Shown here: positions 12,710 through 37,645 of the stretch, piece after piece
Layout: the number at the start of each line of letters is the position of its first letter
How positions within the stretch are numbered: the stretch's first letter is position 1
Source of the DNA: Dehalococcoidia bacterium
Lineage (GTDB): Bacteria; Chloroflexota; Dehalococcoidia; GIF9; AB-539-J10
Direction: 5' to 3'
Length of the DNA stretch: 37,645 nt
Assembly (NCBI GenBank): GCA_030615965.1
Contig: JAUWYE010000003.1
Span: 1 to 37,645 of the forward strand
Program-made: the position numbers and the translations under genes
Notes under the pieces: model-generated
Seen by the model: only the letters and a program-made list of their open reading frames with translations
Database searches by the model: none
What the model was told of the DNA's origin: nothing

Positions 12710-15109
12710 TCATGTCAGCTGGTGTTCCGTCCGCGCGATGATCTCATCTTGTACCGCTTTGCCCAGATTAACAAAGTAGGCACTGTAACCAGCTACCCTT
12801 ACAATTAGATCACGATGTCTTTCTGGATACTTTTGGGCGTTCAGTAGTGTGTCCTTATTGATAATATTAAATTGAACATGCTTTCCATCAAAGCTGAAGT
12901 AGGTCTTTATCAGGTCTGATAGTTTTTTCAGGTCTTCTGTGCTCTTTAAGGCCGATGGATGGAACTTCATGTTCAGCAATGTTGACTGGAAGGGCACCTG
13001 GTTTATTGTCATGGCACTTCTAATGAGCGCTGTAGGCCCATGAGTATCCCTACCTTGCGCCGCTGACATTGTTCCGTCAGCCAGAGTTTCACCGGCATAT
13101 CTACCGTCGGGCGTAGCACCGGTTAAGGCTCCACCCGGCACATGCGCCGTAATCGAGATGCCTGCCGGTTTCATTGTCCCCCCCCAAGCAGTAGCGAATG
13201 TAACTGCTGTATCAACCCAACACTGGTAGAGTTCTTTGGCTATCGAGTCAACATAGTAGTCACCATTTCCATATTTGGGTGCCGCCAGAAACAATTTTCG
13301 CATTTCTGTGTATCCATTCCCCTGCCAGTTTGCCTCAAGAGCCGCCTTTAATTCTTTCTTGGCGACTTTCTTTCCGTCAAAGACAAGCCTCTTCACTGCC
13401 GCCATTGAGTCAGCTACATTTATCATGCCAACAGGGTTCAGCATTGAGCCATTCTCAAACGGCATTGTGCGGTCAAGAGCATCTTTGCCTTCCTTTATCG
13501 CGTCAACCATCAGCGCAGAATGAAAAGCGTCAGGGAAGAGTTCAGTCTGCGCTCGTAAGAGAATGTTGTGCTCCTCTGCCGCCAAACCCATGAAATAGGC
13601 AAGCTGTTCCTTGAATGCTTTCATGAAGTCATCGAATGTCTCAAAGCTTTCAAAGTCTCCGGTTCTGGGACCGAGTTGCCTACCGGTCCGCGGTTCAACG
13701 CCGTTGTTCATGGTAATCTCAAAAACCAGCGGTACAATGAACATGCCAATGGCATTGATGCGTGATTTACCGGCTAGGTTAACATCAAGACACCCGGCTA
13801 ATGCGTAATCCCGCGCATCTCGAAGAGGCACACCATGGCTAACCAAGTACTCGATGTAGGACTTGTCCCCGACGAAGGCGGGCATACCAATCCCGGTCTT
13901 CACCACTTCGAGAGCTTTCAGCATTAGGGCTTCGGGTGTCCCCTCATGAACCCTCACCGTTATGGTGTGGTGAGGAGTCTGACAGTCCTTCGCCGCTTCC
14001 AGAATGAGGTAGGATAGCTCGTTGGTAGCGTCTTCACCATCAGGTGTTACACCACCAATAACCCAATTGTTCCACCTGGCCAATCCCGACCACTTCTGTC
14101 GCTGAATATTGCCGCCGCCGACAAAATTGTACTGCATAACCTTAATCCGAAGACATTCCAGCAATTCCAGCACTTCATCGTCGGTGATTCTACCCTCTTC
14201 TTTATCTTTCTTGTAGAACGGGTACATGTATTGGTCAAACCTGCCTCCTGGCGCTGTCCCCTGAGCAATCATCATCCAAGTAAACCAGAAAGCCTGCATC
14301 GCTTCATAAAAGGTTCTGGCCGGGTTACCCGGCACCCAGTGGCACGTTTCCGCTATCCGTTTTAACTCTTTCTTCCGTGTTAGGTCTTTTTCCTTGAAGG
14401 CCATTTCTGCTGCCACGTCAGCGAATCTGTTGGCAAGGCGAACAACAGCCTTATTGATTATGATTACTGACTTCAGAAAATCTGCCTTTTTTATCGCATC
14501 GGTGCTGGTATACCTTAAATTCTTTAACTCTTCCTCTGCGTCTTCTATTATCTTGTTAAGACCCTCATTGAGCACCTTGGCATAGTCCACAACAATGAGA
14601 CACTGGCCCAAGCCTAAACCCCAGCCAACCCCGGCTGCCCCAAACCCACGCCCTTCGTCTTTCTTTTTCCACGGTGGGCAAAGGATACCCGACTGAATGA
14701 ACGGCCACAACCTCTCATCATCGTAGAATTGTCCCTGTCTCTCTTCGAGGGTCCTACCTTTACCTCTCCAGTAGTCATCCATTGACCTTAACAAGGCTTC
14801 ATCTTCATCAGAAATTGTGAGTCCCTGTTTCTTGAGTTCCTCTAGATCTTCCTCAGGCCATGTTGGACCTAGGGAGCCAGCCTCAAGCCCCATTGGTTTA
14901 CTCGCCACGTTGCCAACAATGAGTTCACCATCTTCAATGATTATTGTTTTGTTATCCAAGTAGTGCGCAGTCGCTTTCGCCCTTCTTAGAATTGCCGGTT
15001 CACCCTCGGTCTGTCTATACGAATCCATAACTAGGCGAGCCTTCTCCACGCAAATCGGGTATTTCTCTAATCTAAGACTTTCTTTTAGTTTCTTTACTTT
15101 TTGGTTCAC
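12710..15109 (-). CDS. glycyl radical enzyme (PFL2/glycerol dehydratase superfamily), paralog 1
   Basis: C-terminal LIVRVAGYSAYF glycyl motif; thiyl loop ALAGCLDV; GATPDGR. Start set at GTG 15109 because of SD GGAG and alignment with the paralog start. Confidence 0.93.
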   Translation of the reverse strand: MNQKVKKLKESLRLEKYPICVEKARLVMDSYRQTEGEPAILRRAKATAHYLDNKTIIIEDGELIVGNVASKPMGLEAGSLGPTWPEEDLEELKKQGLTISDEDEALLRSMDDYWRGKGRTLEERQGQFYDDERLWPFIQSGILCPPWKKKDEGRGFGAAGVGWGLGLGQCLIVVDYAKVLNEGLNKIIEDAEEELKNLRYTSTDAIKKADFLKSVIIINKAVVRLANRFADVAAEMAFKEKDLTRKKELKRIAETCHWVPGNPARTFYEAMQAFWFTWMMIAQGTAPGGRFDQYMYPFYKKDKEEGRITDDEVLELLECLRIKVMQYNFVGGGNIQRQKWSGLARWNNWVIGGVTPDGEDATNELSYLILEAAKDCQTPHHTITVRVHEGTPEALMLKALEVVKTGIGMPAFVGDKSYIEYLVSHGVPLRDARDYALAGCLDVNLAGKSRINAIGMFIVPLVFEITMNNGVEPRTGRQLGPRTGDFESFETFDDFMKAFKEQLAYFMGLAAEEHNILLRAQTELFPDAFHSALMVDAIKEGKDALDRTMPFENGSMLNPVGMINVADSMAAVKRLVFDGKKVAKKELKAALEANWQGNGYTEMRKLFLAAPKYGNGDYYVDSIAKELYQCWVDTAVTFATAWGGTMKPAGISITAHVPGGALTGATPDGRYAGETLADGTMSAAQGRDTHGPTALIRSAMTINQVPFQSTLLNMKFHPSALKSTEDLKKLSDLIKTYFSFDGKHVQFNIINKDTLLNAQKYPERHRDLIVRVAGYSAYFVNLGKAVQDEIIARTEHQLT

Positions 15110-15325
15110 TGTTATCTCCAAACTATAATCGCATTAGACTCTATGGTCACCCTACATTTACCCAGAGCACCTCATCTAGGTATGGATTGTCAAGAGGCTT
15201 TTAGCGCTTGACACGGTGGTGCAGAGTAGTTTTGTGCATTAATCAGAGGTGGTACATAGATTATCTCCTCAATAGTCTACTTCATATATTCCAGCGGGCA
15301 GATTACCGGCGAGCGGCCCTGATAT

Positions 15326-15396
15326 ATTATAACAATGTTAATATAATCAAACAATATATTACAACTCTTGTAATTGTTTTTACAAGTGGGTATAAT
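15326..15396. promoter_or_regulatory. back-to-back sigma70 promoters for the two GRE genes, with overlapping palindromes
   Basis: Plus: TTGTAA (15368-73), 17 nt, TATAAT (15391-96). Minus: TTGTTT (15354-49), 17 nt, TATAAT (15331-26) with TG extension. Palindrome TTACAA-CTC-TTGTAA at 15359-15373. Confidence 0.65.
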
Positions 15397-15449
15397 ACAA
15401 ACGGACGCGAGGCAAGGTATACTTGCATACTTTTGCTTCGGGGATAATT

Positions 15450-17846
15450 ATGAGCCAGAGAATAGCGAAACTTAAGGAAGGGCTCCGTATAGATAAGTAC
15501 CCAATCTCCTGCGAGAAGGCTCGACTGATTACAGAGTCCTTTAAGCAGACCGAGGGCGAACCTCAAATCACAAGAAGAGCTAAAGCCCTTGCCAACGTCT
15601 TAGATAAGATAACAATCTTTATTGAAGATGGTGAGCCTATTGTTGGCAATGCGTCAAGTAAACCGATGGGGGTTGAAGTCGACTTCGATTATGGAATATG
15701 GTCCCGTGAAGAAATAGACTGGCTCAAGGAAGAGGGATACACAATCTCCGAAGAGGATGAATCAGAGATAATATCGATGAACGAGTATTGGAAGTCAAGG
15801 ACTCTTGTAGGTAGATCCGGGGAAATATTTGATGACGAAAGGCTGTGGCCATTCAGGCAATTAGGGGTGGCCCTTCCACCATGGAAAAGCAGAACAGAGG
15901 GAAGCGGAGGTGGATATGCCCAGGGTGGCATGGGCTTAGGTCCAGGTTTTCTTTTGTTTGGGGTAGACTTTGCCAAGGTGCTCAATAGCGGCTTCAACAA
16001 GATAATAGAAGACGCAGAGGAAGAGTTAAAGAATTTAAGGTATACCAGCACCGATGCGATAAAAAAGGCGGATTTTCTGAAGTCAGTAATCATATCACTT
16101 AAAGCTATTATTCGCTTTGCTAATAGGTTCACTGACCTGGCAGCAGAAATGGTGGCAAAGGAAAAAGACCTAACACGGAAGAAAGAGTTAAAACGGATAG
16201 CGGAAACGTGCCGATGGGTACCAGCTAATCCAGCAAGAACTTTCTATGAAGCTATACAGTCCTTCTGGTTTACATTCTTGATGATAAACCCATCGACTAC
16301 TGCGGCAGCAGGTAGGTTTGATCAGTATATGTACCCGTTCTACGAGAAGGATAAAGAAGAGGGAAGAATTACCGACGAGGAAGTCTTAGAATTGTTGCAA
16401 TGTCTACGGATTAAGGACATGCAGATAAACCGGACTTCAGGTAAAATTAACCGACAGAAGAACGCGGGGATGGCCAAATGGCACAATTGGACTATTGGTG
16501 GTGTAACACCTGATGGTGAAGACGCTACCAACGAGCTATCCTACCTCATTCTGGAAGCGGCCAAGAGATGCCAGACTACGCATCACACCATAACATTGAG
16601 GGTCTATGAGGGGACACCCGAAGCCCTAATGCTGAAAGCTCTGGAAGTGGTGAAGACCGGGATTGGTATGCCAGCATTCGTCGGGGACAAGTCCTACATC
16701 GAGTACCTGCTCAATCAGGGCGTACCCCTTAAGGTAGCACGAGATTACATAATGACAGGATGTATTGATGTAAATATAGTAGGACAGTCTCGTATTGCAT
16801 CCTACGATATGTTCATTGTTCCGCTAGTTTTTGACATTTTCATGCACAATGGCGTGGACCTGAACACCGGTAAACAAGTTGGCATCAAGACTGGAGACCT
16901 TGAAAGCTTTGAGTCGTTTGATGACCTAGTGAGAGCGTTTAAGGAGCAGCTTGCCTATTTCATGGGTCTGTCTGCAGAATGTAATAATATTCACCTGCGA
17001 GTAAATGCTGAATTATTCCCAGACCCAGTTCGGTCCTCATTGATGCTTGATGCTATTGAGGAAGGCAAGGACATTCTTGATCGCACTTTACCATTTGAGA
17101 ATGCTGCAGTACTTAACGCTGTTGGCATGATAAATGTAGCCGACTCGCTAGCGGCAATAAAGAAGCTTGTCTTCGATGAAAAGAAAGTCACCATGAAAGA
17201 GTTGAAGGCGGCTCTTGACGCAAACTGGCAAGGAGATGGATACGAAGAAATGCGAAAATTGTTTCTGGCGGCACCCAAATATGGAAATGATGACAATTAT
17301 GTGGACTCAATAGCCAAAGACCTCTACAAGTTCTGGGCGGATACGGCAGTGACATTTGATACCATCTTTGGGGGGAAACATAAACCGACAGGCATCTCAA
17401 TTTCAGCACAGTGGCCAGGTGGAGCCTTAACCGGTGCTACCCCTGATGGCAGGTATGCTGGTGAGTGTCTGGCTGATGGAACAATGTCACCTATGCGAGG
17501 CAGGGATACTCATGGGCCTACCGCAGTAATTAAAAGTGCGGCGAAGATAGACCAAGTGCACTATCAGGCTACACTGCTGAACGTGAAGTTCCATCCATCG
17601 GCGTTACAGACTACAGAAGACACGAGGAAACTATCAGATCTGATAAAGACCTACTTTAGCCTAGGTGGAAAGCATATTCAATTCAATGTTGTTGGTAGGG
17701 ACACGTTGCTAGATGCCCAAAGACACCCGGAGAACTACCGTGACCTAGTTGTAAGAGTGGCTGGTTATAGTGCCTACTTTGTACAGCTGGGCAAAGTAAT
17801 ACAAGATGAGATCATCAGGCGGATGGAGTACCAGCAGACGGCATAA
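15450..17846 (+). CDS. glycyl radical enzyme, paralog 2
   Basis: 798 aa from ATG 15450; LVVRVAGYSAYF; thiyl loop IMTGCIDV; clearly homologous to paralog 1. Confidence 0.93.
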   Translation: MSQRIAKLKEGLRIDKYPISCEKARLITESFKQTEGEPQITRRAKALANVLDKITIFIEDGEPIVGNASSKPMGVEVDFDYGIWSREEIDWLKEEGYTISEEDESEIISMNEYWKSRTLVGRSGEIFDDERLWPFRQLGVALPPWKSRTEGSGGGYAQGGMGLGPGFLLFGVDFAKVLNSGFNKIIEDAEEELKNLRYTSTDAIKKADFLKSVIISLKAIIRFANRFTDLAAEMVAKEKDLTRKKELKRIAETCRWVPANPARTFYEAIQSFWFTFLMINPSTTAAAGRFDQYMYPFYEKDKEEGRITDEEVLELLQCLRIKDMQINRTSGKINRQKNAGMAKWHNWTIGGVTPDGEDATNELSYLILEAAKRCQTTHHTITLRVYEGTPEALMLKALEVVKTGIGMPAFVGDKSYIEYLLNQGVPLKVARDYIMTGCIDVNIVGQSRIASYDMFIVPLVFDIFMHNGVDLNTGKQVGIKTGDLESFESFDDLVRAFKEQLAYFMGLSAECNNIHLRVNAELFPDPVRSSLMLDAIEEGKDILDRTLPFENAAVLNAVGMINVADSLAAIKKLVFDEKKVTMKELKAALDANWQGDGYEEMRKLFLAAPKYGNDDNYVDSIAKDLYKFWADTAVTFDTIFGGKHKPTGISISAQWPGGALTGATPDGRYAGECLADGTMSPMRGRDTHGPTAVIKSAAKIDQVHYQATLLNVKFHPSALQTTEDTRKLSDLIKTYFSLGGKHIQFNVVGRDTLLDAQRHPENYRDLVVRVAGYSAYFVQLGKVIQDEIIRRMEYQQTA

Positions 17847-17942
17847 GTGAAGGAGCAAATTTTCCTGAGTCAGGAGGTGGTGCCTATGAGCTTAAGCATG
17901 TAAGTGGCTTGGTAGAAATTAGCATAAAGGAGATAGTGCAAA

Positions 17943-19043
17943 ATGAAAAAGGCAATTTTGTTAATTTGCATCCTGATGGGACTAATGCTCATGATTAGCC
18001 CGCTCTTGGGTGCTTGCGCTGAACCAACACCCGCACCTACCCCGACACCACCACCTACGCCAACTCCGACACCACCACCGCCCCCACCCGAGCCGATAAA
18101 GTTGACCTTTGGCGGTCTGTATCCCCCGGCCCACCCCTTCTCGGTCGCCACTCAAGCCTGGATTGAAAAGATGGCGAAGGAGACCGACGGGCGGGTGGAA
18201 ATCGAGCCATTCTGGGCTGGCGCCCTCTACGGCCCCAGGGAGTCCGCTACCGAGCTAGGCAAGGGAGTAGCCGACACCGGCGACTTCTCCGGTGCCTACG
18301 CTGCTACGGGATTTGACTTCGAGAAGTCGTTTCGTATGGTATTCTGGGGTGTTGACGATAGAGCTCTCGCCCGGAAGGTATATTATGAGGTGTGTGCCAA
18401 GTACCCCGAGCTTGACGCCGAGTTCGCCGATGCCAACATCAAGGTTATGGCATATGCTTCCGTCCCACCCTACCACCTGATTACCGTGGACGACCCGGTC
18501 CGTAAGGTGGACGATTTCAGCGGCCTGATGTTAAAGACGACCGGCGATATTGGCAAGTTGGCTGCTGCCCTCGGCGCTGAGGGGATGACCATAGGCATGG
18601 GCGACACTTATATCGCCCTGCAGAAGAACACCATTGATGGCGGTTTCGTCACGGACGAGACGCTGAAATCGTTCCTGTTCGCCGAGGTGATAAAGTACTG
18701 CACGAGGCTGACCATCGCCTCCGCCCCCGCCGGGCACTGGGGCATGAGCATGGACGTCTGGAACAGCCTGCCACCGGACATCCAGCAGGTGTTTGAGGAC
18801 AACATCGAGTGGTTTGGCTTGAAGGTAGAGGAGTTGGCCTTTGCTATGAATCAGGAGGGCATCGCCCTGGCTGAGCAACATGGGGTGGAGTTCATCGAGC
18901 TTCCACCGGCGGAGCTGGACAAGGTCTACGCAGCGGCTGACACCGTCATACGAGAGGAGATGGCTGACCTTGACGCCAAGGGTTTTGCCGGCACTGCCGT
19001 CTATGAGGAGATACGCCGCCTTATCAAGGAGTACGGCGGTTAG
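17943..19043 (+). CDS. dctP: TRAP transporter substrate-binding lipoprotein
   Basis: Lipobox LGAC, Pro/Thr linker, ETDGRVEIEPF, YIALQKNTIDG, WNSLPPDIQQV. Confidence 0.9.
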   Translation: MKKAILLICILMGLMLMISPLLGACAEPTPAPTPTPPPTPTPTPPPPPPEPIKLTFGGLYPPAHPFSVATQAWIEKMAKETDGRVEIEPFWAGALYGPRESATELGKGVADTGDFSGAYAATGFDFEKSFRMVFWGVDDRALARKVYYEVCAKYPELDAEFADANIKVMAYASVPPYHLITVDDPVRKVDDFSGLMLKTTGDIGKLAAALGAEGMTIGMGDTYIALQKNTIDGGFVTDETLKSFLFAEVIKYCTRLTIASAPAGHWGMSMDVWNSLPPDIQQVFEDNIEWFGLKVEELAFAMNQEGIALAEQHGVEFIELPPAELDKVYAAADTVIREEMADLDAKGFAGTAVYEEIRRLIKEYGG

Positions 19044-19103
19044 TGTCCAGCAGCAGTGGACTCTGTCCGCAAGCCTTTGACCGCAAGATTAGGTTGTCCT
19101 GAG

Positions 19104-19133
19104 TTGGGGGGTGCTGAGAGTAGCACCCCCCAA
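19104..19133 (+). other. intercistronic stem-loop between dctP and dctQ
   Basis: TTGGGGGGTGCT-gagagt-AGCACCCCCCAA, a perfect 12-bp stem without a U-tract. Confidence 0.7.
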
Positions 19134-19143
19134 AGGGGAGATT

Positions 19144-20921: not shown

Positions 20922-20985
20922 CAGGTGTTACAGGAAGTCCGGCAGAAGCCAATGACGGCTCAAGAAAGGGGGTAAAGCGGTTCTA

Positions 20986-29106: not shown

Positions 29107-29119
29107 GAAGGAAGAACAA

Positions 29120-30402: not shown

Positions 30403-31707
30403 ATGAGTGAAGTAAGAAGTGTTAGCGGTCAGCCCAAGGCTGGCAGCGGGCAGGGGGATAGGAGTGTCAAGCAGTTGAGGAGCTCCGTCGAGGCAGCTGC
30501 CTACCAGAAAGAATGGTTCAAGAAGACGAGAGAGAGAATAAGCGAAGGCGACCCCTTCGCTCTAGCGCAAGCTGATACACCCCATGAAATATTCCTTACC
30601 ATGGATATACCGGTTGTACCGGTTCAGTGGTGGTCGGCGGTTATTGCTGCCAAGCGCCTGTCTGCCTACTACTTCGATTTGATGAACGAGCGGGGCTACC
30701 AAAGGAACCTGTGCCGTTACTGCTGCCTGCCATTGGCTTGTACCATGGACCACAATCCAGAGCGCGCACCCTGGGGGGGATTGCCCAAACCCACAGTGCT
30801 ATTAGCGGAACTAACATGTGACTCACATTCAAAAATATTTCATCTCTGGGCCCGTGAGTATGGTTGCCACTTCTTTCCGCTGGAGTGTAGCGCTTCTACC
30901 GTATCGTACTCTCGTTGGTGGGAAAGGATAAAACACCACTGGGATGAGGTAATCGAGCCTCATAGACTGGATTTGAGGGTTGAAGAGCTGAAAGCGCTGA
31001 TAAGATTCTTGGAGGTTACCACTGAAAGGACATTCAGCCATGCCAAGTTTGTAGAAATCATGGAACTGGAAAATGAACAAGAAGAATACTTCAAGAAGAC
31101 GCGTGACTTGATAGCTGAGACCGTTCCTTGCCCGGTGAACTTAGCCGACCAGTTCGCCAGCACTATGAATCCACAGTGGCACCGGGGCACGCAGTGGGGG
31201 CGCGACCAAGCCAGGATGTTCTACGAGGAGGTGAAAGAGAGGGTAAATAAGGGCGAAGCAGTTTGCAAAAATGAAAAGCTCAGGCTGATGTGGATTGGGG
31301 CAGGACTCTGGCATAACATCGCTTTTTATCAGTACTTTGAGGAAAAGTACGGTGCTGTTTTTGTTTGTTCCATTTATCTCTCTATTGCAGCAGACGGCTA
31401 CGCTCGGGATTGCCTTAATGACCCGCTGAGAGCTTTAGCTAGCCGCCACTTGAGCATGGGAGAGCACTTGCGCCAACCAGACTGGCTGGTGAAGGAGGCA
31501 AAGCTGCACAAAGTCAATGGGGCGGTTATGATAGTAGCTGAAAATTGCATACGTGATGTTGGACGCAGATTCACACAGATAGCTTTCGAAGATGCCGGTA
31601 TACCGCTGCTTACCATTTATGCCGACGTTGTTGATGCCAGGGAATGGGATGACGATAAGATCAAATCTCAAGTTTCCAGCTTTATTGAAGAAAGGCTTTT
31701 ATCCTAA
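30403..31707 (+). CDS. 2-hydroxyacyl-CoA dehydratase / benzoyl-CoA reductase subunit (HgdA/FldB/BcrB-like)
   Basis: PHEIF, LCRYC, GGLPKP, TCD, EKLRLMW, ENC, GIPLLTIYADVVDAREW. Confidence 0.85.
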   Translation: MSEVRSVSGQPKAGSGQGDRSVKQLRSSVEAAAYQKEWFKKTRERISEGDPFALAQADTPHEIFLTMDIPVVPVQWWSAVIAAKRLSAYYFDLMNERGYQRNLCRYCCLPLACTMDHNPERAPWGGLPKPTVLLAELTCDSHSKIFHLWAREYGCHFFPLECSASTVSYSRWWERIKHHWDEVIEPHRLDLRVEELKALIRFLEVTTERTFSHAKFVEIMELENEQEEYFKKTRDLIAETVPCPVNLADQFASTMNPQWHRGTQWGRDQARMFYEEVKERVNKGEAVCKNEKLRLMWIGAGLWHNIAFYQYFEEKYGAVFVCSIYLSIAADGYARDCLNDPLRALASRHLSMGEHLRQPDWLVKEAKLHKVNGAVMIVAENCIRDVGRRFTQIAFEDAGIPLLTIYADVVDAREWDDDKIKSQVSSFIEERLLS

Positions 31708-31810: not shown

Positions 31811-32932
31811 ATGACCGACGAGACACTCACGATGATGGCTGTAGGGGATTTGATTCTTGACGAGCCACAAGCTGAAACCTATTTTGAGCTTGTGGTGCCG
31901 GTGCTGAAGTCAGCTGACGTGGTAGTTGGACAAGGAGAGGTCGTCTTTACCGACCGTGGTTTCTGTGCATCTACAGATGTGGTTGCTCCACCTTGTGACC
32001 CGAGTAACATGAGTGCTTTACCCTTTGCCGGCTTTAACGTAATCACCCTTGCCGGCAACCATCTCTGGGATTCGGGCCCACCAGGGATAGAGGACACAAT
32101 AGCTGGTCTTCGGAATTATGGCATTGCCGTTTGCGGAGCCGGGATGAATATTGACGAGGCCAGGCGCCCGGCCATAGTTGAGCGTAATGGAACACTATTT
32201 GGTTTTCTGTCTTACAATTGCGTTGGACCCAAGGAATCCTGGGCGACCGCTAACAAGCCGGGTTGCGCCTATGTGAACATCCTTACCCACTATGAATTGG
32301 ATTATGCTACTCCCGGAGGTCCTCCGGCCATATACACCTTCGCTGAGTCCAGAAGTCTCGAATTGATGGAAGATGATATCCACAAGCTCAGGTCCCTTTG
32401 TGATGTTCTGGTAGTTGCTTTACATAAAGGTATCGGGCATGTGCCAGCCAAGCTGGCAATGTACGAACAACAAGTATCGTATGCCGCCATCGACGCCGGA
32501 GCTGACCTGATCCTCGGACATCACGCTCACATACTCAGAGGAGTCGAGCAGTACAAAGGGAAAACGATATTTCACGGCTTATGCAATTTCGTTACCGTCA
32601 CCCGAGCTCTAACAGTTGACCATACCCAGGACTCCCAGCAGTGGGCTATAAGGAGGAAGGAACTCTTTGGCTTTGAGCCAGACCCTGAGTATCCAACGTA
32701 TCCCTTTCATCCTGAAGCAAAGCAAACAATAATTGCCAAGTGCACCATAAGTGATGGTAAGATTACCCGGGTGAGTTACCTTCCCTGTTTGGTCAATAAA
32801 CAGGGACAACCGGAGATACTCAAGAATGACGAAAGGGGACAGCAAGTTTTCAATTACATGGACAGGATAACCCAAGCAGCAGGTCTAAATGCTCGGTATG
32901 AATGGGACGGGAATGAAGTAGTAATCCATTGA
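31811..32932 (+). CDS. CapA/PGA_cap family protein 2
   Basis: AVGD, LAGNHLWD, ALHKG, ILGHHAH, HGLCNF; shares PDPEYPTY with paralog 1; SD GGAGG. Confidence 0.88.
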   Translation: MTDETLTMMAVGDLILDEPQAETYFELVVPVLKSADVVVGQGEVVFTDRGFCASTDVVAPPCDPSNMSALPFAGFNVITLAGNHLWDSGPPGIEDTIAGLRNYGIAVCGAGMNIDEARRPAIVERNGTLFGFLSYNCVGPKESWATANKPGCAYVNILTHYELDYATPGGPPAIYTFAESRSLELMEDDIHKLRSLCDVLVVALHKGIGHVPAKLAMYEQQVSYAAIDAGADLILGHHAHILRGVEQYKGKTIFHGLCNFVTVTRALTVDHTQDSQQWAIRRKELFGFEPDPEYPTYPFHPEAKQTIIAKCTISDGKITRVSYLPCLVNKQGQPEILKNDERGQQVFNYMDRITQAAGLNARYEWDGNEVVIH

Positions 32933-33223: not shown

Positions 33224-34252
33224 GTGAAAAGTCTAAAACTGGTAGTGTTCATTCTTGTAGGAGTAATTTTCGTAGCCACCGCGTTCTTGGGTGCCTGTGC
33301 CGCACCAGCTCCAGAAAAGGTTATAGAACTAACCTACGGCCAGACCGAAGGCCCAGAACATACTTTCTCCCAGGCGGATTTACTCTGGATAGACAAAATA
33401 GAGAAGGATACCAACGGCTGGGTTCATATCACGCCGTATTGGGGTGCAACCTTAGTCAGCAGGGCAGAGAATACCGCTGAGCTCATTAAAGGGGTTGCTG
33501 ATCTTAGCTATCTTTCTCCAAGAACAGGGTACCCTCTTATGTTGGGAACTCTGGGGTTTCCTTTTGGGGTCCCTGATTGGGAGACCCAAGTGCGTATTTA
33601 CGAGGAAGTGTTTGAAAAATTCCCTGAGCTCGACGCCGAATGGGTTGATTTGAAGGTTATGGCAAAGTCCGTGGCATCGAACTATCAGCTTATCAGCACA
33701 GTGCCCGTCCGCACTCTAGATGATTTCAAGGGGCTGAGAATAAAAGCTACGGGGGCCTACATCGAGGTAGGTAAAGCGCTGGGAGCCGACGCGTTCTATG
33801 TATCTATGGGTGAGACCTATATGGCTTTAGAAAAAGGGACTATAGATGCTTGTTTTGCCCCCTACGACACCCTCAAGTCATTTAGGTTTTATGAAGTGGC
33901 ACCGTACGTCACTATCTTAAACCTGCAAAGCGCGGTTCGCCCGACGAGAGGAATGAACCTGTATACCTGGAACAGGCTGCCACCGGATATACAGCAGATT
34001 TTCGAAGACAGCATTGCGTTTTGGAGTTTAGAGGATAATAAGGCGAGGGAACGTGTTAATGGGGAGGGTGTTGAACTCGCCGAGCAGGCAGGTGTTGAGT
34101 TTATTGAGGTGTCAGCGGAGGATTTAGCCGAGCTTTATCAAATTATGGATACCGTAATGCGTGCCGAGGCAGCCAAGCTTGATGAGAAGGGGCTTCCCGG
34201 GACCGAGATTTATGAGGAGGTACGCCGCCTCGTAGAAGAATATACCAAGTGA
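33224..34252 (+). CDS. dctP: TRAP transporter substrate-binding lipoprotein 2
   Basis: Lipobox LGAC; DFKGLRIK, YMALEKGTIDA, WNRLPPDIQQI; SD AGGAGGT. Confidence 0.92.
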   Translation: MKSLKLVVFILVGVIFVATAFLGACAAPAPEKVIELTYGQTEGPEHTFSQADLLWIDKIEKDTNGWVHITPYWGATLVSRAENTAELIKGVADLSYLSPRTGYPLMLGTLGFPFGVPDWETQVRIYEEVFEKFPELDAEWVDLKVMAKSVASNYQLISTVPVRTLDDFKGLRIKATGAYIEVGKALGADAFYVSMGETYMALEKGTIDACFAPYDTLKSFRFYEVAPYVTILNLQSAVRPTRGMNLYTWNRLPPDIQQIFEDSIAFWSLEDNKARERVNGEGVELAEQAGVEFIEVSAEDLAELYQIMDTVMRAEAAKLDEKGLPGTEIYEEVRRLVEEYTK

Positions 34253-34343
34253 GGTTTAACTGACACATAGAGAACATACACTCTTGCACATAAAGTCGTA
34301 ATAATTCCTTGCCCCGACGCAAGAGGGCAGTGGAACGTAAAGT

Positions 34344-34826
34344 ATGGACTATTTGGCTAACATTGTTCGTCGGATGGGCGGGTGGGGTATGGCTCTGGGG
34401 GCTGCCTTCCTGACAGGGATGATGGTTCTCATTGTGGCAAACATTATTTCCCGCCTTTCCGGGCATGTTATAGCCGGTAGCTACGAGCTTTCTGAGCTTA
34501 TGATAGTCGTCGCCGTTGCCTTTGCCCTGGGCTATGCGGCGCTGAAGAAAAGTCATGTTGTTGTAAAAATTGTGGTATCTCGATTTCCCCAGCGGGCTCA
34601 GTCAATTATTGAAGCTTTTATGTCCCTTATTTCCCTGGCTACCTGGGCACTGATAGCCTGGGCTGGTTTTCTTATCTTGTCTGAAAGGTGGCTTACAGAA
34701 GAAACTGACCTGCTCGATGTTCCTTACCTCCCATTTAGATTTGTCTTTTTGTTGGGTTTGCTCCTGTTCTGCTTGGTATACCTGATAGACCTATTTAGGG
34801 CGCTGAGCCAGGCGGTGAGGAAATGA
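34344..34826 (+). CDS. dctQ: TRAP transporter small permease 2
   Basis: About 4 TM helices; GSYELSELM, SHVVVKIVVSRFP, PYLPFR. Confidence 0.9.
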   Translation: MDYLANIVRRMGGWGMALGAAFLTGMMVLIVANIISRLSGHVIAGSYELSELMIVVAVAFALGYAALKKSHVVVKIVVSRFPQRAQSIIEAFMSLISLATWALIAWAGFLILSERWLTEETDLLDVPYLPFRFVFLLGLLLFCLVYLIDLFRALSQAVRK

Positions 34827-36142
34827 GCCCGGTTGAAGTGAGCCCGGTTGTTGTAGGTCTTATCGGTTTCGTTGCTCTTTTTTCCCTTTTAGCCTTTGGA
34901 TTGCCGATTGGCGTTGGCATGGCTATAGTAGGCTTTGGTGGGCTATGGTATTTGATATCGCAAGGTGCCGCCATCGCCAAATTTGGATTGATGCCATTTG
35001 ACACGGTATGTAATTGGGATTTGGGCGTCCTGCCCCTTTTTCTACTTATGGCTCACGTTATCTTTGCCTCCGGAATAAGTAAAGACCTGTATAACGTTGC
35101 CGCTAAATGGCTGGGGCATCAACGCGGGGGGGTAGCTATGGCTACTGTGGGGGGATGTGCCGGGTTTGCTGCTGTCAGCGCCTCCAGTCTAGCCACAGCA
35201 GTTACTATGGGTCTGGTGGCCCTCCCCGAAATGAAAAAGTATAAGTATGACCCGGCGCTGTCTACCGGCTGTGTCGCCGCTGGGGGAACTATAGGCCAAC
35301 TTATCCCCCCCAGCGCTGGCCTTATTACGTATGGGATAATCACTGAAACATCCATAGGCAGGCTTTTTGCTGGCGGCATAGTGCCAGGAATACTCGAGGC
35401 TATCTTCTATATGGTTACCATTTATATTCTTTGCCGGTGGAAGCCTAGCCTTGGTCCTCGAGGACCCAGCTTCAGTTTCAGAGAAAAGGTGGCGTCTTTT
35501 GCGAGCTGCGGCGAGATAATAGGGTTAATTATCCTTGTCCTCGGGGGTCTCATCGTTGGTTGGTTTACCCCTACTGAAGCCGGGGCAGTAGGCGCTTTCG
35601 GGGCTATCTTTTTCTCCCTGCTCAGAAGGCGACTCAATTGGGAAAAATTCAAGCATGCTCTGACTGAGACGATGAAGACCACGGGCATGCTTTATGGTAT
35701 CCTGATTGGCGCCTTTATTTTTAAATACTTCCTGGCGGTGACCACTATTCCGTTCGTGCTAGCCGATTTTGTCGGCGGGCTGCCCCTGCCCCCTCTAGTC
35801 ATTATGGTACTTGTTATGTTAGTGTATATATTCCTCGGTTGCGTTATGGATGCACTGACAATGATTCTGCTTACTATACCCGTTTTCTTTCCCCTGGTTC
35901 TAAGCTTGGGCTTTGACGCAATATGGTTTGGCATAATAATAGTGAGAATGGTGGAGATAGGGCTGATTACCCCACCTATAGGTATGAATGTATATGCCAT
36001 CTCCGGGATAGCTCCAGATGTGCCTGTAACTACTATATTCAAAGGCGTAATTCCGTTTCTTATAGCTGATATGTTTCACGTGGCCCTCTTGTTGTTTGTT
36101 CCCGCAGTTGTACTGTTTTTGCCCGGCATCATGATGCAGTAA
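34823..36142 (+). CDS. dctM: TRAP transporter large permease 2
   Basis: 439 aa; LIPPS, FTPTEAGAVG, ITPPIGMNVY; ATGA overlap with dctQ. Confidence 0.93.
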   Translation: MSPVEVSPVVVGLIGFVALFSLLAFGLPIGVGMAIVGFGGLWYLISQGAAIAKFGLMPFDTVCNWDLGVLPLFLLMAHVIFASGISKDLYNVAAKWLGHQRGGVAMATVGGCAGFAAVSASSLATAVTMGLVALPEMKKYKYDPALSTGCVAAGGTIGQLIPPSAGLITYGIITETSIGRLFAGGIVPGILEAIFYMVTIYILCRWKPSLGPRGPSFSFREKVASFASCGEIIGLIILVLGGLIVGWFTPTEAGAVGAFGAIFFSLLRRRLNWEKFKHALTETMKTTGMLYGILIGAFIFKYFLAVTTIPFVLADFVGGLPLPPLVIMVLVMLVYIFLGCVMDALTMILLTIPVFFPLVLSLGFDAIWFGIIIVRMVEIGLITPPIGMNVYAISGIAPDVPVTTIFKGVIPFLIADMFHVALLLFVPAVVLFLPGIMMQ

Positions 36143-36143
36143 G

Positions 36144-36389
36144 CTAGAGACGATTAACAATGTTCGGCCACAGGTAGTAGGCTTAAGTGGATTCTTGACC
36201 CTGGCCTACGATTCCATGAAGAGCACTATAGCCGCAATCAAAGATGCTGGTCTGCGAGACAAAGTGAAAATTATGATCGGCGACGGTCAGATTAGCAAGC
36301 AGGTAAAAGAGTATCCCGGCGCTGATGCCTATGGCCGAGACGCCATGGCCGGGGTATCACTAGCCAGGGCATGGATAGGGGGCAAATAA
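36144..36389 (+). pseudogene. 5'-truncated corrinoid (B12-binding) methyltransferase protein
   Basis: Frame reads ETINNVRPQVVGLSGFLTLAYDSMK...LRDKVKIMIGDG...GADAYGRDAMAGV; the cap domain and DxHxxG are missing; the conserved GGG reads GDG. Confidence 0.8.
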
Positions 36390-37645
36390 GTGGACAAGGA
36401 ATGGACCGGGTTATCGCTGGAAGCAAAGCTGGAGAAGATGTTTGAGTCCTGGCTTGCGCCACAGGGGATAGATTTTATCAGTGCTAGAGCAGAGAAGGCG
36501 TACCAGGAAAGGGCAACCAGGATAAAAGACGCTATTCAATTGAAAGTGCCGGACAGGGTTCCGGTCATCCCCAGCGTCGGGTTTTTTCCTGCCTATTATG
36601 CCGGGATAACAGTTGAAGAAGCCATGTACGACTACGACAAGCTTTGCCAGGCATGGGGGAAATATACCTTTGACTTTGCGCCAGATGCACATTCCGGCTG
36701 TGGCCGTGCTGGGCCTGGGAAGGTCTACGATATTATCGACTATAAGCTTTATGTATGGCCAGGGCATGGCATTGGTCCCGATATGCCATTCCAGTGCGTT
36801 GAAGCTGAGTATATGAAAGCTGATGAATATGACGCGCTGATTCAAGACCCGTCCGATTTCTGGATGAGGGTTTATTTACCTCGCATTATCGGTGTGCTGG
36901 AGCCTTTAAGTAAGCTCTTTCCATTTTCCAGGGTAATTGAAATAAGTAGTATAAGTAGTTTTGTCCTGGAGTACGGCATGCCAGACATCCGCGCCTCGTT
37001 TGAGACCCTTTTCAAAGCGGGAGAGGAAGCTATGAAATGGAGAGAGGCTTGCCGTGCCTGTGATAAAGCGGTAGTGGAAACCGGGTTTCCAATGTTTCGC
37101 AGTGGTGGCAGTTTAGCACCTTTTGATGTGCTCGGTGACACCCTCAGGGGAACCCGAGGCATAATGCTGGATATGTACCGGCAACCTGATAGGCCACTTG
37201 AAGCTATGGAAAGGCTGACGCCCCTGATGATTGAGAGGGGGGTATCAAGCGCGCGCTCTTCGGCTAGTCCTCTGGTGTTCATACCTTTACACAAAGGTGC
37301 CGATGGTTTTATGTCTGATGAGCAGTACAAGTCGTTCTACTGGCCCACCCTCAGAAAGGTTATCCTGGGTTTAATTGACGAAGGGCTCATACCGTTTGTT
37401 TTTGCCGAAGGCTCCTACAATGGGCGTCTGGAGATTATCAGGGATTTGCCCAAAGGCAGGGTCGTATGGAGGTTTGACGACACAGATATGGCCAGGGCCA
37501 AGGAAATCCTGGGTGATAACGCTTGCATCTACGGGAACGTGCCAGCGGCAATATTAAGCACAGGAACGACCGATGAGGTGAAGGCCTACTGTAAGAAACT
37601 CATAGACGTTGCTGGCAAAGGCGGTGGATTCATCTTATCCTCCGG
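36390..37645 (+). CDS. uroporphyrinogen decarboxylase (URO-D/MtaA-CmuA) family protein, likely a corrinoid-dependent methyltransferase; partial at window end
   Basis: Not in the ORF track because it has no stop in the window. My translation from GTG 36390 gives VPDRVPV...PFDVLGDTLRG...FIPLHKGADGFMSDEQY...CIYGNVP...GKGGGFILSS. Confidence 0.85.
   Translation, partial: MDKEWTGLSLEAKLEKMFESWLAPQGIDFISARAEKAYQERATRIKDAIQLKVPDRVPVIPSVGFFPAYYAGITVEEAMYDYDKLCQAWGKYTFDFAPDAHSGCGRAGPGKVYDIIDYKLYVWPGHGIGPDMPFQCVEAEYMKADEYDALIQDPSDFWMRVYLPRIIGVLEPLSKLFPFSRVIEISSISSFVLEYGMPDIRASFETLFKAGEEAMKWREACRACDKAVVETGFPMFRSGGSLAPFDVLGDTLRGTRGIMLDMYRQPDRPLEAMERLTPLMIERGVSSARSSASPLVFIPLHKGADGFMSDEQYKSFYWPTLRKVILGLIDEGLIPFVFAEGSYNGRLEIIRDLPKGRVVWRFDDTDMARAKEILGDNACIYGNVPAAILSTGTTDEVKAYCKKLIDVAGKGGGFILSS

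Follow-up and report, generated by a model that had tools for sequence, protein, structure and literature searches.

A pair of Cys-x-Asp glycyl-radical enzymes in a putative anaerobic catabolic island of a Dehalococcoidia bacterium

The window, meaning the whole stretch of DNA analysed (37,645 nucleotides), is one entire contig of a MAG with 69% completeness from a sediment bacterium. Genes in the region at 12710-37645 were identified by Pfam searches over its 19 large ORFs and three intergenic small ORFs, by NCBIfam cut-offs and by comparison with PDB structures. Two divergent glycyl-radical enzyme (GRE) genes open the region. GRE1 (12710-15121, minus strand, 803 aa; Pfam PFL-like 573 and Gly_radical 102 bits) carries the motifs Cys444-Leu-Asp446 and RVAG778YSA, and GRE2 (15423-17846, plus strand; PFL-like 584 and Gly_radical 123 bits) carries Cys447-Ile-Asp449 and RVAG781YSA; the GRE2 length of 807 aa is counted from the first TTG, and homologues align from about residue 9. 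The two proteins are paralogues, 71% identical, with intact Gly and Cys loops. The region between them (15122-15422) contains sigma-70-like hexamer pairs on both strands (15319-15347 and 15368-15396, plus; 15150-15122, minus), which as consensus matches only are candidate promoters. Restriction-modification genes lie immediately upstream of the region.

Two TRAP transporters are encoded on the plus strand, with all components assigned to the Pfam families DctP, DctQ and DctM. TRAP-1 (17943-20921) consists of DctP1 (17943-19043), DctQ1 (19111-19635) and DctM1 (19623-20921), and TRAP-2 (33224-36142) of DctP2 (33224-34252), DctQ2 (34344-34826) and DctM2 (34823-36142). Both DctPs have a lipoprotein-type N-terminus, which ends ...LLGAC in DctP1 and ...FLGAC in DctP2. 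With a GC content of 0.54-0.58, against 0.46-0.48 in its neighbours, TRAP-1 is a compositional outlier and therefore probably a recent insertion; it is missing at the corresponding position in the related loci L002-L004. Its joint is bridged by an independent unitig from the run that probably yielded the MAG (X1), which spans 17260-24986 with zero differences, and contigs from another study span the joints HgdX1-CoAT1, CoAT2-HgdX2 and HgdX2-CapA2. The MarR-family regulator (24252-24797, plus; Pfam MarR and MarR_2), whose NCBIfam matches, to MprA and HpaR, are weak and stay under the cut-off, is also missing at this position in L002-L004. The sole activase of the window (25528-26493, plus) combines Radical_SAM and Fer4 domains with a ferredoxin-like two-cluster insert, and scores 365 bits against TIGR02494 (cut-off 174), while all substrate-specific activase equivalogs stay below cut-off.

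The MmgE/PrpD-family protein (20986-22359, plus), which has both the N- and C-terminal Pfam domains, falls in an IRG1/IDS-epimerase-like branch, and its nearest structures are the B. subtilis IRG1 homologue, IDS epimerase and cis-aconitate decarboxylase. As a PrpD equivalog it was rejected (48 bits against an NCBIfam cut-off of 950). The characterised members of this family all act on C2-substituted succinates, including an (S)-(R)-methylsuccinate isomerase (PMC12290011). CapA1 (22857-24032, minus; PGA_cap, 220 bits) has a calcineurin-like fold, with the MslH entries as its sole solved relatives (78 bits); counterparts of MslH E44, N87, H88, D91, H259 and H295 are kept, H261 is replaced by Gly, and D11 is not aligned. 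A second PGA_cap protein, CapA2 (31811-32932, plus; 168 bits), reaches 83 bits against the MslH model (cut-off 700) and is 82-83% identical to its orthologues in L002 and L003. The hydrolysis that the first-pass annotation had proposed finds no support in the CapA proteins, since MslH, which alone among their solved relatives is characterised, is an epimerase. The last gene (36390-37645, plus; ORF 36390-37643), truncated where the contig stops, encodes a URO-D-fold protein (Pfam URO-D, 57 bits); its homologue in L009 measures 449 aa. In L005 and L009 such homologues immediately precede a B-type GRE, and a second URO-D-like family is found near the GRE in L036 and L039. No B12-binding family appears in the Pfam results for the region's ORFs, a DxHxxG motif is lacking from the URO-D-like protein and from 13 further proteins of the region, and the match to the MtaA-type model is weak (29.5 bits, cut-off 244), so that the proposed corrinoid component and demethylation are not supported.

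The AMP-dependent acyl-CoA ligase at 24903-25492 (plus) is an internally deleted, frame-shifted pseudogene, in which a stretch of about 135 codons from the N-terminus runs, near 25329, into the final 48 codons (25349-25492), which are read in a different frame. Its Pfam AMP-binding match covers profile positions 3-116 only, it shares 76-79% identity with the N-terminal part of the full ligases of L002 and L004 (529-530 aa, intact), and in comparison with other assemblies the junction has loose ends at 25329. Here, where the ligase is dead, a CoA-transferase/HGD-D block occupies the space between the activase and CapA2. HgdX1 (26558-27748, plus; HGD-D, 246 bits) is closest to BzdN (158.8 bits in the PDB comparison, followed by HadC with 106.9 and a double-cubane protein with 68), and all its NCBIfam matches are below cut-off. 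The overlapping class III CoA-transferases CoAT1 and CoAT2 (27865-30358, plus; 27865-29106 and 29096-30358; CoA_transf_3, 250 and 343 bits) match formyl-CoA, succinate-glutarate and mesaconate CoA-transferases best in NCBIfam, always below cut-off. HgdX2 (30403-31707, plus; HGD-D, 164 bits) is closest to BzdO and MbdO (65.8 and 63.3 bits, with HadB at 54), and scores 77.5 of 750 against the HadB and 77 of 448.6 against the BzdO model of NCBIfam. No BcrAD-type ATPase is encoded in the window, and the 69%-complete MAG yields just one, a fusion of two domains encoded on a different contig among unrelated genes.

Pfam thus bears out nearly all of the first-pass gene list where it was placed: the two GREs, the single activase, both TRAP systems, the MmgE/PrpD protein, the two CapA-fold proteins, MarR and the URO-D-like protein, as well as the HgdA/B-like and class III CoA-transferase pairs, which appear as two HGD-D and two CoA_transf_3 proteins. 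The corrinoid component falls away, and the ligase pseudogene had been overlooked. The reported absences also hold, in that Pfam detects neither BMC shell proteins nor GRE small subunits, and no aldehyde or alcohol dehydrogenase, among the 19 large and three small ORFs.

Both GREs score below every NCBIfam equivalog cut-off, with PFL2-3 as the top match of GRE2 (628.9 bits, cut-off 678.2). Among solved structures the diol dehydratases come closest to GRE2, at 524 and 506 bits (the best match is glycerol dehydratase, 1r8w), followed by AAD (7e7l, 430 bits), MasD (377), TutD (343) and HPAD (293). According to a recent review, every characterised eliminase and isomerase keeps a C-x-E motif, HPAD and IAD do likewise, and the string "CXD" occurs nowhere in that review (PMC13450708). 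The GREs therefore stand outside the characterised classes: judged from sequence, they belong to an uncharacterised, widespread PFL2-type clade whose thiyl loop has Asp at the place of the catalytic Glu of C-x-E. The family set comprised 46 sources (45 related loci and the window) with 63 full-length members, of which 58 have G-C-[LIV]-D; the motif is found in 15/15 members of clade A, where GRE1 is placed in the tree, and in 39/39 of clade B, which holds GRE2. In GRE2 numbering, K/R352, W353, N355 and D449 are found in 54/54 clade members and R457 in 53/54. An A-type copy occurs in 18 sources, and in 14 of them a B-type copy lies within 10 kb; L007 has a B-like copy, L023 a divergent second copy, and in the last two the view is limited by a contig edge or a short contig. 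The pair is ancient, standing side by side in several phyla, where no more than one activase is visible nearby.

The surroundings of these GREs were compared across the 46 sources, in counts that are biased to B-type neighbourhoods through the use of GRE2 as bait and that include nine of 45 loci shorter than 12 kb. At least one of CapA, PrpD, CoA-transferase III and HGD-D lies within 10 kb of the GRE in 19/46 sources and at least two in 11/46, while none of the four occurs in the 35 control loci with a different GRE class (L047-L081). Individually, HGD-D is present in 12, CapA in 10, CoA-transferase III in nine and PrpD in eight. An activase was found in 25/46, some CoA-activating enzyme in 17/46, and a flanking transporter (MatC/CitMHS, TRAP, TAXI, MFS or SBP5) in 29/46. 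Two Dehalococcoidia MAG loci (L002 and L003) share the order GRE-A', GRE-B, PrpD, CapA1, ligase, activase, CapA2 at 70-84% identity, but without TRAP-1 and without the HGD-D/CoA-transferase block between activase and CapA2. A locus from Bacillota (L008) encodes PrpD, activase, GRE-A, GRE-B, TAXI-TRAP, a fused HGD-D, a CoA-transferase and CapA. The accessory families are found with the GRE repeatedly, and in varying order, in Chloroflexota, Bacillota, Desulfobacterota, Acidobacteriota and Clostridia MAGs, and the modules are reshuffled between genomes. The earlier proposal of a candidate undescribed pathway built around two GREs is partly supported, in that no characterised class fits the enzymes and the gene combination recurs in further genomes and phyla.

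The region is best explained, with a probability of roughly 0.6, as an island for the anaerobic breakdown of a carboxylic acid that the cell imports, with the Cys-x-Asp GRE clade at its core. Paired sister radical enzymes beside importers and CoA enzymes point to a carboxylic-acid breakdown route, and the conserved neighbours are consistent with the acid uptake, radical step and CoA-dependent chemistry predicted earlier. The TRAP systems would import the acid, and the one activase would place the glycyl radical on both GREs, which may serve two related substrates, stereoisomers or consecutive steps. Asp449 (GRE2 numbering) could be the base, in the role of the Glu of eliminases and isomerases, and Lys/Arg352 and Arg457, family-invariant basic residues near pocket positions, might hold the carboxylate(s). 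The PrpD-like and MslH-like CapA proteins would perform enolate chemistry (isomerisation, epimerisation or dehydration) beside a carboxylate. The CoA-transferase pair would form the thioester in place of the ligase, which the nearest relatives still have in intact form. The BzdNO/HadBC-like pair, served by an ATPase from another part of the genome, may catalyse ketyl-type reduction or dehydration as an ATP-dependent Fe-S enzyme.

It is doubtful, though worth weighing, that the 25 kb hold more than one pathway, as a plastic island in which a self-sufficient core (regulator, activase, GRE(s) and importer) lies beside independent modules: the BzdNO-like enzyme with CoA-transferases, CapA with PrpD, the second TRAP and the URO-D-like protein. 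Many clade-B loci are minimal, with only regulator, activase, GRE and carrier, and the accessory modules vary by locus, so the region may indeed exceed one pathway; the block and TRAP-1 missing from L002 and L003, the GC content of TRAP-1, the ligase pseudogene, the restriction-modification neighbours and the presence of each accessory family in just 8-12 of 46 sources fit this. The gene content of the island is shifting, and part of it may be decaying. However, chance juxtaposition is hard to reconcile with the same families accompanying the GRE across phyla, or with 11/46 sources against 0/35 controls; the window genes run in the same direction with spacings from -11 to 292 bp, and intrinsic terminators show no enrichment there (21 found, 19 expected).

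For the radical step, 1,2-elimination or isomerisation of a hydroxylated (di)carboxylic or hydroaromatic acid is tentatively preferred, by analogy; a reaction of the diol-dehydratase type should be followed by aldehyde-handling enzymes, and the window encodes none, which counts against it and favours decarboxylation. The latter comes next as a reaction type. As a full alternative it is unlikely: the GREs would be radical decarboxylases (Kolbe-type or hydrogen-atom-transfer) for acids with a stabilised alpha-radical (arylacetate-like, beta,gamma-unsaturated, substituted malonate or succinate), with the product CoA-activated afterwards, and in minimal loci the reaction may be coupled to a dicarboxylate/monocarboxylate exchanger. 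The MatC/CitMHS-type dicarboxylate carrier directly behind the B-type GRE in 13 loci would suit this, and the indoleacetate decarboxylase model scores 509-521 bits, on par with eliminase models. Both DctPs have 4n6d and 4pgn/4nap as nearest solved relatives, the latter presumably solved with indole acids. Small-subunit-free decarboxylases such as AAD exist (PMC13450708), but diol dehydratases remain the most similar structures and HPAD the weakest PFL-like one. The C-x-D motif is no pointer to decarboxylation, because HPAD and IAD also have C-x-E. Moreover, cells excrete the products of the known GRE decarboxylases, whereas here an extensive set of genes for later CoA-dependent steps recurs, and the GlcDEF-like 2-hydroxy-acid oxidoreductase (four loci), AFOR (five) and HGD-D neighbours suggest oxo-/hydroxy-acid or aldehyde intermediates.

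BbsEF is a heteromeric class III CoA-transferase pair that follows an X-succinate synthase. A bbs-like route for a substituted succinate, with small-subunit-free, fumarate-adding GREs, a BbsEF-like CoA-transferase pair and the PrpD-like protein as X-succinate isomerase, could draw on LssDE, another such pair (PMC12583861), on the C2-substituted succinates of MmgE/PrpD members, on the thiolase with DUF35-type partner, Bzd-like reductase genes and ferredoxin upstream of the GRE pair in L002-L004, on ACAD/ETF in L031, L032 and L028, the last from the culturable Geosporobacter ferrireducens, on the MaoC-like hydratase of L023, and on the dicarboxylates classically imported by DctPQM- and MatC-type carriers, but it is very improbable: MasD and TutD are among the most distant solved relatives, the importers favour an anionic substrate over a hydrocarbon, and the 19 large and three small ORFs encode none of the beta, gamma and delta small subunits, such subunits being required by every known X-succinate synthase (PMC13450708).

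Elimination or isomerisation within a carboxylic-acid island would take place in a pocket that differs from those of the nearest known enzymes. In alignment to glycerol dehydratase and IseG, pairwise only and with the loop near GDH 152-165 aligned uncertainly, His164 gives way to a Gly-rich six-residue insertion without His, N-G-H281 is deleted, and Ser282, Tyr339 and Tyr640 are replaced by Thr, Trp and Ser, respectively. Arg676, which binds the sulfonate in IseG, is replaced by Thr.

The region from position 12,710 to the contig end holds an intact pair of glycyl radical enzymes (GREs) of a Cys-x-Asp type, in which Asp replaces the Glu of the C-x-E motif on the thiyl loop. Genes for an activase, for importers and for CoA-dependent enzymes accompany the pair, a combination that recurs across phyla. 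The two genes are divergently oriented: GRE1, an A-type copy, occupies 12710-15121 on the minus strand, and GRE2, a B-type copy, 15423-17846 on the plus strand. Pfam and NCBIfam confirm the gene list that the first-pass annotation had drawn up for this region, and microcompartment, GRE small-subunit and aldehyde/alcohol dehydrogenase families are, as it had stated, missing among the 19 large ORFs and three intergenic small ORFs. The exception is the corrinoid half of its methyltransferase module, since none of the Pfam scans made there shows a B12-binding family, and neither the URO-D-like protein nor 13 other proteins of the region contain a DxHxxG motif. The URO-D-like protein (36390-37645) reaches 29.5 bits on the MtaA-type model (cut-off 244), and no corrinoid methyltransferase can be recognized within the region; the contig ends inside this gene, with downstream partners possible.

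The contig (37,645 bp) is a complete contig of a metagenome-assembled genome (MAG) that is itself 69% complete, and the nearest related loci lie in Dehalococcoidia MAGs. In the probable source run, one 7,727-nt unitig corresponds to 17,260-24,986 with zero differences and spans GRE2, the first TRAP system (TRAP-1), PrpD, CapA1 and MarR (24252-24797), and in run X3, from another study, the junctions HgdX1-CoAT1, CoAT2-HgdX2 and HgdX2-CapA2 are spanned by contigs of 90-99% likeness. Because the joints are bridged in this way, the gene order is no assembly chimera. The acyl-CoA ligase gene at 24903-25492 is dead, having undergone an internal deletion and a frame shift. Its AMP-binding match in Pfam is limited to profile positions 3-116; the N-terminal ~135 codons are 76-79% identical to intact ligases of 529-530 aa at the same position in two related loci (L002 and L004), and from ~25,329 the last 48 residues of the ligase follow in another frame, with the stop codon at 25,490-25,492. 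On this C-terminal piece, which is conserved, contigs of four runs accumulate to a depth of 57-116, diverging at 25329 and at 25482-25486. Elsewhere in the MAG no close copy of the ligase was found, the other ligases being 29-35% identical. TRAP-1 (17943-20921) is probably a recent insertion. Its GC content is 0.54-0.58 against 0.46-0.48 in its neighbours (0.44-0.50 in the wider region), it is missing at the corresponding position in the related loci L002-L004, where PrpD directly follows GRE-B, and its DctM shares 85% identity with the DctM of L033, a further Dehalococcoidia MAG. An Rfam scan of the whole window gave no match at the gathering score, and 33 promoter-like sites were found in it against 23.7 expected; operon ends were left unset, because the number of intrinsic terminators in the window (21) is near expectation (19.0).

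Bases 1-12,500 contain restriction-modification genes and unannotated ORFs, with a GC content of 0.37-0.43. Two restriction-modification units lie at 2074-10006 (GC 0.37-0.39), comprising a fused N6-methylase/Eco57I-type protein of 1060 aa (2074-5256) and a TdeIII-family type II endonuclease (7638-8417) that adjoins an N4/N6 methylase (8423-10006); for five ORFs nearby Pfam gives no match. In L002-L004 the same position, directly upstream of the GRE pair (~1-7300), is taken by genes for an HGD-D protein, two BcrAD ATPases, a ferredoxin, a large Fe-S flavoprotein (833 aa), a thiolase and a DUF35-type protein. This block presumably resembles a bzd-type benzoyl-CoA reductase cluster joined to a BbsAB-like thiolase.

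GRE1 and GRE2 are 71% identical to each other (567/802). RVAGYSA is intact in both, as is the lone Cys of the thiyl loop, whose sequence is G-C-L-D in the former and G-C-I-D in the latter. Recent gene conversion was considered for the peptide stretches common to the two and was dropped, as an inverted-repeat search found arms 78-85% complementary over the whole length without any long identical tract. Of 7985 candidates scored in a protein search, 3238 are relatives at E ≤0.001, and identity to GRE2 is 65-90% in the top 120 of these; their source names, where given, are generic, with an uncurated ‘formate C-acetyltransferase’ on some. Among contigs of one genome per species, 154 stretches carry a relative; the loci retained number 80, namely 45 related loci at 44-84% identity to GRE2 (46 sources with the window) and 35 control loci of another GRE class at 35-38%. 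The clade comes from sediment, subsurface, soil and gut or rumen MAGs of many phyla. The motif G-C-[LIV]-D is found in 58/63 full-length members of the window and the 45 related loci; another sequence stands there in the upstream copies of L002-L004 (G-C-L-E), in L034 (A-C-L-E) and in one copy of L037 (G-C-V-Y). The L034 copy (9956-12364, Dehalococcoidia) also has N-M-S-T-H-H in place of RVAGYS, and its sequence suggests either a degenerate protein or a non-glycine (aminoacyl) radical enzyme of a kind that one study has reportedly described.

A maximum-likelihood tree resolves an A clade, with GRE1, and a B clade, with GRE2. Asp449 (GRE2 numbering), Lys/Arg352, Trp353 and Asn355 are present in all 15 A and all 39 B members, and Arg457 in 53 of the 54, while the A clade is marked by Arg161, Trp170 and Trp347, for which the B clade has Ser, Leu/Met and Asn. 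From the alignment to the pocket positions of glycerol dehydratase (GDH) we infer that the conserved residues line the pocket. The A/B pair is old and conserved. An A-type copy occurs in 18/46 sources, 14 of which have a B-type copy within 10 kb; of the others, L007 has a B-like sister copy, L023 has a more divergent second copy, and in L017 and L018 the contig is short or its edge is reached. The carriers include Dehalococcoidia, Dethiobacter, other Bacillota, Desulfobacteraceae, Desulfobacula, Spirochaetales and Sphingomonadales/Proteobacteria MAGs. B-type copies are often solitary, and the gene maps contain at most one member of the activase cluster per locus. GRE1 and GRE2 differ in history, because the nearest relative of the former is a Desulfobacteraceae A copy (83%) and those of the latter are Dehalococcoidia B copies (83-84%); the A' copies of Dehalococcoidia are 70% identical to GRE1 and have Glu in the loop.

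For the comparison of neighbourhoods, ORFs were called in the window and the 45 loci and clustered by BLASTP, and cluster representatives were annotated with Pfam. The activase is encoded in 25/46 sources, any transporter in 29/46, HGD-D in 12/46, CapA in 10/46, a class III CoA-transferase in 9/46 and PrpD in 8/46; any CoA-activating enzyme (class III or class I transferases, AMP-ligases, ADP-forming synthetases) is found in 17/46. At least one of CapA, PrpD, class III CoA-transferase and HGD-D is present in 19/46 sources and at least two in 11/46. These fractions are lower bounds, since 9/45 loci are under 12 kb. A MatC/CitMHS carrier directly follows the GRE in 13 sources, and TRAP, TAXI-TRAP, MFS and SBP5-ABC systems also occur. 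Rarer are URO-D-like proteins, AFOR, carboxylesterase/tannase and BcrAD ATPases, each found in five (AFOR together with a Zn-ADH in two), a GlcDEF-like oxidoreductase, found in four, and ACAD/ETF, found in three. The culturable carrier Geosporobacter ferrireducens IRF9 (L028) combines PucR, GRE-B, MatC, ACAD/ETF and an HGD-D pair. In the 35 control loci, tblastn with the window proteins found the activase alone, with PrpD, CapA, HGD-D, CoA-transferase and TRAP at 0/35, an imperfect background because the taxonomy differs (mostly gut Clostridia). The window order GRE-A', GRE-B, PrpD, CapA1, ligase, activase, CapA2 is kept in L002/L003 at 70-84% identity, and in L004 as far as the ligase. In L031/L032 the GRE pair is followed by a class I CoA-transferase, an AMP-ligase, ACAD and ETF, which we take to be the gene order of the car operon of caffeate reduction.

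Tannase/feruloyl-esterase-family genes stand beside Cys-x-Asp GREs in L016 and L044 (Acidobacteriota MAGs), carboxylesterases in L018, L023 and L037, and cytochrome P450 genes in three loci (L019, L030, L044). These neighbours hint that some lineages use substrates that are aromatic or bound as esters. Two distinct URO-D-like families adjoin B-type GREs, c19 in L005 and L009 and c70 in L036 and L039, with no corrinoid protein visible beside them in these four loci; the L009 homologue of the URO-D-like protein of the window has no Pfam match at E ≤0.001.

The region is a conserved but modular context around a known kind of enzyme. One rival reading, which overlaps the others, is a mosaic of independent modules. 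The probable arrival of TRAP-1 and the dead ligase fit such a mosaic, and the co-occurrence of the accessory families around the clade does not; we consider it doubtful.

Both proteins belong to the PFL-like branch of the GRE superfamily (PF02901, 573 and 584 bits; PF01228, 102 and 123 bits), and the cognate radical-SAM activase (25528-26493) is present (TIGR02494, 365 bits, cut-off 174). They remain under every curated NCBIfam cut-off: 600 and 629 bits against 678 for the PFL2-3 subfamily (TIGR01774), 591 (590.8) against 1000 for HpsG, the second-best model, 533 and 550 (best 549.9) against 1100 for HypD, 499 and 549 (best 548.8) against 1050 for CutC, 521 and 509 against 1100 for IAD, 411 and 438 against 1150 for HPAD, and 104 and 122 against 994 for PFL (TIGR01255). 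Thus none of the eliminase/isomerase equivalogs (HypD, CutC, HpsG, HpfG, PflD-type) is reached, and both loops have Asp in place of the Glu of C-x-E; a pyruvate/2-ketobutyrate formate-lyase is not indicated either, as the loop has Gly-Cys without a Cys-Cys pair. With GRE2 as query, the top solved relatives are glycerol dehydratase (1r8w, 524 bits) and propanediol dehydratase (5i2a, 506), followed by 9rco (478), CutC (477), IseG (443), HypD (442) and AAD (430), and far behind by MasD (377), TutD (343) and HPAD (293). The entry 9rco presumably comes from a chymotrypsin-digestion study. In pairwise alignment His164 of GDH gives way to a Gly-rich six-residue insertion without His, in a loop whose alignment is uncertain, Asn-Gly-His281 is deleted, and Ser282, Tyr339, Gln340 and Tyr640 become Thr, Trp, His/Asn and Ser; the sulfonate-binding Arg676 of IseG is likewise aligned with Thr. 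The C-x-E motif is kept in all six C-O eliminases, CutC, three C-S lyases and three isomerases, where its Glu binds the substrate hydroxyl, and the string ‘CXD’ has no occurrence in the available text of the 2026 GRE review from which this is taken (PMC13450708).

A carboxylic-acid substrate would also suit a decarboxylation at the GRE step. The scores on the decarboxylase equivalogs HPAD and IAD miss the cut-offs, the small subunit that HPAD has is absent among the scanned ORFs, and in the review text available HPAD and IAD have Glu at the same loop position (PMC13450708); we consider decarboxylation unlikely. A fumarate-adding enzyme that dispenses with small subunits is highly improbable; no ORF for such subunits was found among those scanned, and MasD (377 bits) and TutD (343 bits) lie far behind the dehydratases.

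The same MAG carries a third GRE on another contig (C18, 2-2856), cut by the contig start with 619 aa visible. It is 38-39% identical, by tblastn, to the L002/L004 homologues of GRE1/GRE2, which served as reference, and its best model is CutC (582 bits, cut-off 1050). As its own activase follows, the MAG has at least two GRE systems.

Among the accessory proteins, HgdX1 (26558-27748) has BzdN as its nearest solved relative (158.8 bits), then HadC (106.9) and a double-cubane protein (68), and HgdX2 (30403-31707) has BzdO (65.8) and MbdO (63.3), then HadB (54 bits). No curated cut-off is reached: the BzdN and BzdO models of Bzd-type benzoyl-CoA reductase give 152 bits against 453.8 and 77 against 448.6, and those of HadC and HadB 128.7 against 700 and 77.5 against 750, with class III CoA-transferases adjacent and the activator absent from the window. 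By sequence, the two proteins are best placed as a new branch that lies between the aryl-CoA reductases and the 2-hydroxyacyl-CoA dehydratases, two enzyme types that each need an ATPase. No BcrAD_BadFG ATPase/activator gene is found in the window, and the BcrAD ATPase of the MAG is one fused copy on contig C139, next to an enoyl-CoA hydratase, a 3-hydroxyacyl-CoA dehydrogenase and a repeat protein; a partnership with the HGD-D proteins was dropped, as it sits among unrelated genes. The two class III CoA-transferase genes (CoAT1/CoAT2, 27865-30358) overlap and lie between the two HGD-D genes.

The PrpD-like protein (20986-22359) belongs to the MmgE/PrpD family (PF03972, 201.5 bits; PF19305, 101.6 bits) and falls far short of the PrpD equivalog (48 bits against 950). 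Its nearest solved relatives are IRG1-like proteins, iminodisuccinate (IDS) epimerase and cis-aconitate decarboxylase, and a family member is described as a methylsuccinate isomerase acting via an enolate in the accessible part of one report (PMC12290011). CapA1 (22857-24032, minus strand) and CapA2 (31811-32932) contain a PGA_cap domain (220 and 168 bits), and the solved structures related to them are all of MslH, a peptide epimerase. Its metal ligands and His/Asp dyads are, in the portion of the source available, D11, E44, N87, H88, D91, H259, H261 and H295 (PMC10406935). CapA1 keeps six of the seven aligned residues (E44, N87, H88, D91, H259, H295); H261 becomes Gly and D11 lies outside the alignment. 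The CapA proteins are no MslH orthologues, because they score 97 and 83 bits against 700 on the MslH equivalog. With an epimerase as the solved relative, nothing indicates the hydrolysis that had been proposed as a step of the pathway. Taken together, the PrpD-like and CapA families may reasonably be expected, by analogy, to perform enolate-type chemistry beside a carboxylate.

The two TRAP systems, TRAP-1 and TRAP-2 (33224-36142), are full DctP/DctQ/DctM sets. Both DctPs score 82 bits on TRAP_S1 (cut-off 50) and have lipoprotein-type N-termini, and their nearest solved proteins are 4n6d and 4pgn/4nap. The last two were, we assume, solved with indole acids.

We assign a probability of about 0.6 to a general scheme in which an organic acid is imported, converted by the Cys-x-Asp GREs, activated with CoA and processed by a BzdNO/HadBC-like enzyme. 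Asp449 would take the base role of Glu, and the conserved basic residues would bind the carboxylate(s). Within this scheme an eliminase or isomerase type of GRE is somewhat short of an even chance; the outcome would be elimination or isomerization on a hydroxylated (di)carboxylic or hydroaromatic acid, with decarboxylation next most likely. The A and B copies may act on related substrates, on stereoisomers or in successive steps. The product would become a CoA thioester through the transferase pair of the window, to which CoA transfer is assigned because the ligase is dead, and the BzdNO/HadBC-like enzyme would then process the thioester. The first-pass annotation had proposed acid uptake, hydrolysis or demethylation, radical cleavage or decarboxylation and CoA-dependent dehydration or reduction; its observations stand save the corrinoid part, and its interpretation is supported in part.

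A bolder version is improbable as a whole: that the Cys-x-Asp clade catalyzes a new GRE reaction on a free polycarboxylic or hydroaromatic acid, that A and B form an obligate pair, and that the product passes to a BzdNO-like ATP-dependent enzyme. Substrate candidates would then be quinate/shikimate-type acids, substituted succinate or malonate, and tartrate-type acids, derived from plants or sediment, and the pair would perform consecutive or stereo-complementary steps or form a heteromer served by one activase. If true, an abundant organic acid would reach CoA-thioester metabolism by an anaerobic route so far undescribed.

In the literature searched, a description of the clade or locus is absent, and similarity networks in the supplements of GRE papers may already show the cluster. 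Among the matches listed, those for GREs with PrpD/MmgE/CapA showed no link between them, apparent MmgE mentions in PMC8163825 being the word ‘mmgenome’, and those for Dehalococcoidia GREs did not include this locus by title or abstract start; a search that added CoA-transferase and TRAP gave one unrelated genome report, those joining Dehalococcoidia, benzoyl-CoA reductase and formate lyase gave nothing, and those joining glycyl radical and quinate returned unrelated matches only. GREs give anaerobes chemistry that is hard by other means, and newly assigned classes (choline, hydroxyproline, isethionate, anhydroglucitol phosphate) have revealed pieces of anaerobic carbon, nitrogen and sulfur cycling. 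Whole GRE clades are still without assignment, as is stressed in the available text of the 2026 review (PMC13450708). Here, a large clade departs from the single motif common to all eliminases and isomerases. The window is its richest context so far, with both paralogues, the activase, two binding proteins, a regulator and candidate downstream enzymes, and the substrate question is therefore directly testable. Should the substrate prove to be an acid common in plants or sediment, the pathway would bear on how Dehalococcoidia and other anaerobes of the subsurface turn over carbon.

Among known systems, the limonene GRE was set aside as a match, being described as a BSS-like enzyme in the part of the source available (PMC12583861). 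The arylacetate decarboxylases (IAD, AAD 7e7l, HPAD, PAD) share the carboxylic-acid substrate presumed here, and IAD and AAD are also without a small subunit; the IAD model gives 509-521 bits and AAD 430 bits, with the equivalog cut-offs of 1100-1150 missed. They differ in that HPAD and IAD keep C-x-E according to the review text available (PMC13450708), and their loci are without the CoA-dependent follow-up genes of the window. In IseG/IslA, HpsG and HpfG systems a TRAP importer for an organic anion likewise adjoins the GRE, and DctP1 and DctP2 weakly match the isethionate-binding DctP 8t9t (46-50 bits). By contrast, the position of Arg676 of IseG holds Thr here and Arg187/Gln191 fall in an unaligned stretch (IseG residues from the available text of PMC13450708), and the C-x-D loop and an HpsG score far under the equivalog cut-off separate the pair from the C-S lyases and DHPS dehydratase.

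With FldABC, HadABC and BzdNOPQ (8s02) the window shares a class III CoA-transferase encoded with an HGD-D alpha/beta pair. However, the equivalog cut-offs are missed widely here, the activator/ATPase gene is absent from the window, and two CoA-transferase genes are interleaved between the HGD-D genes; coupling of such a module to a GRE is undescribed for the Fld/Had or Bzd systems in the literature covered. The glycerol (C. butyricum 1r8w) and propanediol (5i2a) dehydratases have the same PFL2-type architecture, RVAGYSA loop, single catalytic Cys, acidic residue two positions past the Cys and activase with a ferredoxin-like insert. Their C-x-E is C-x-D here and their pocket residues are replaced, and the GRE pair of the window is accompanied not by microcompartment or aldehyde/alcohol dehydrogenase genes but by anion importers and CoA enzymes.
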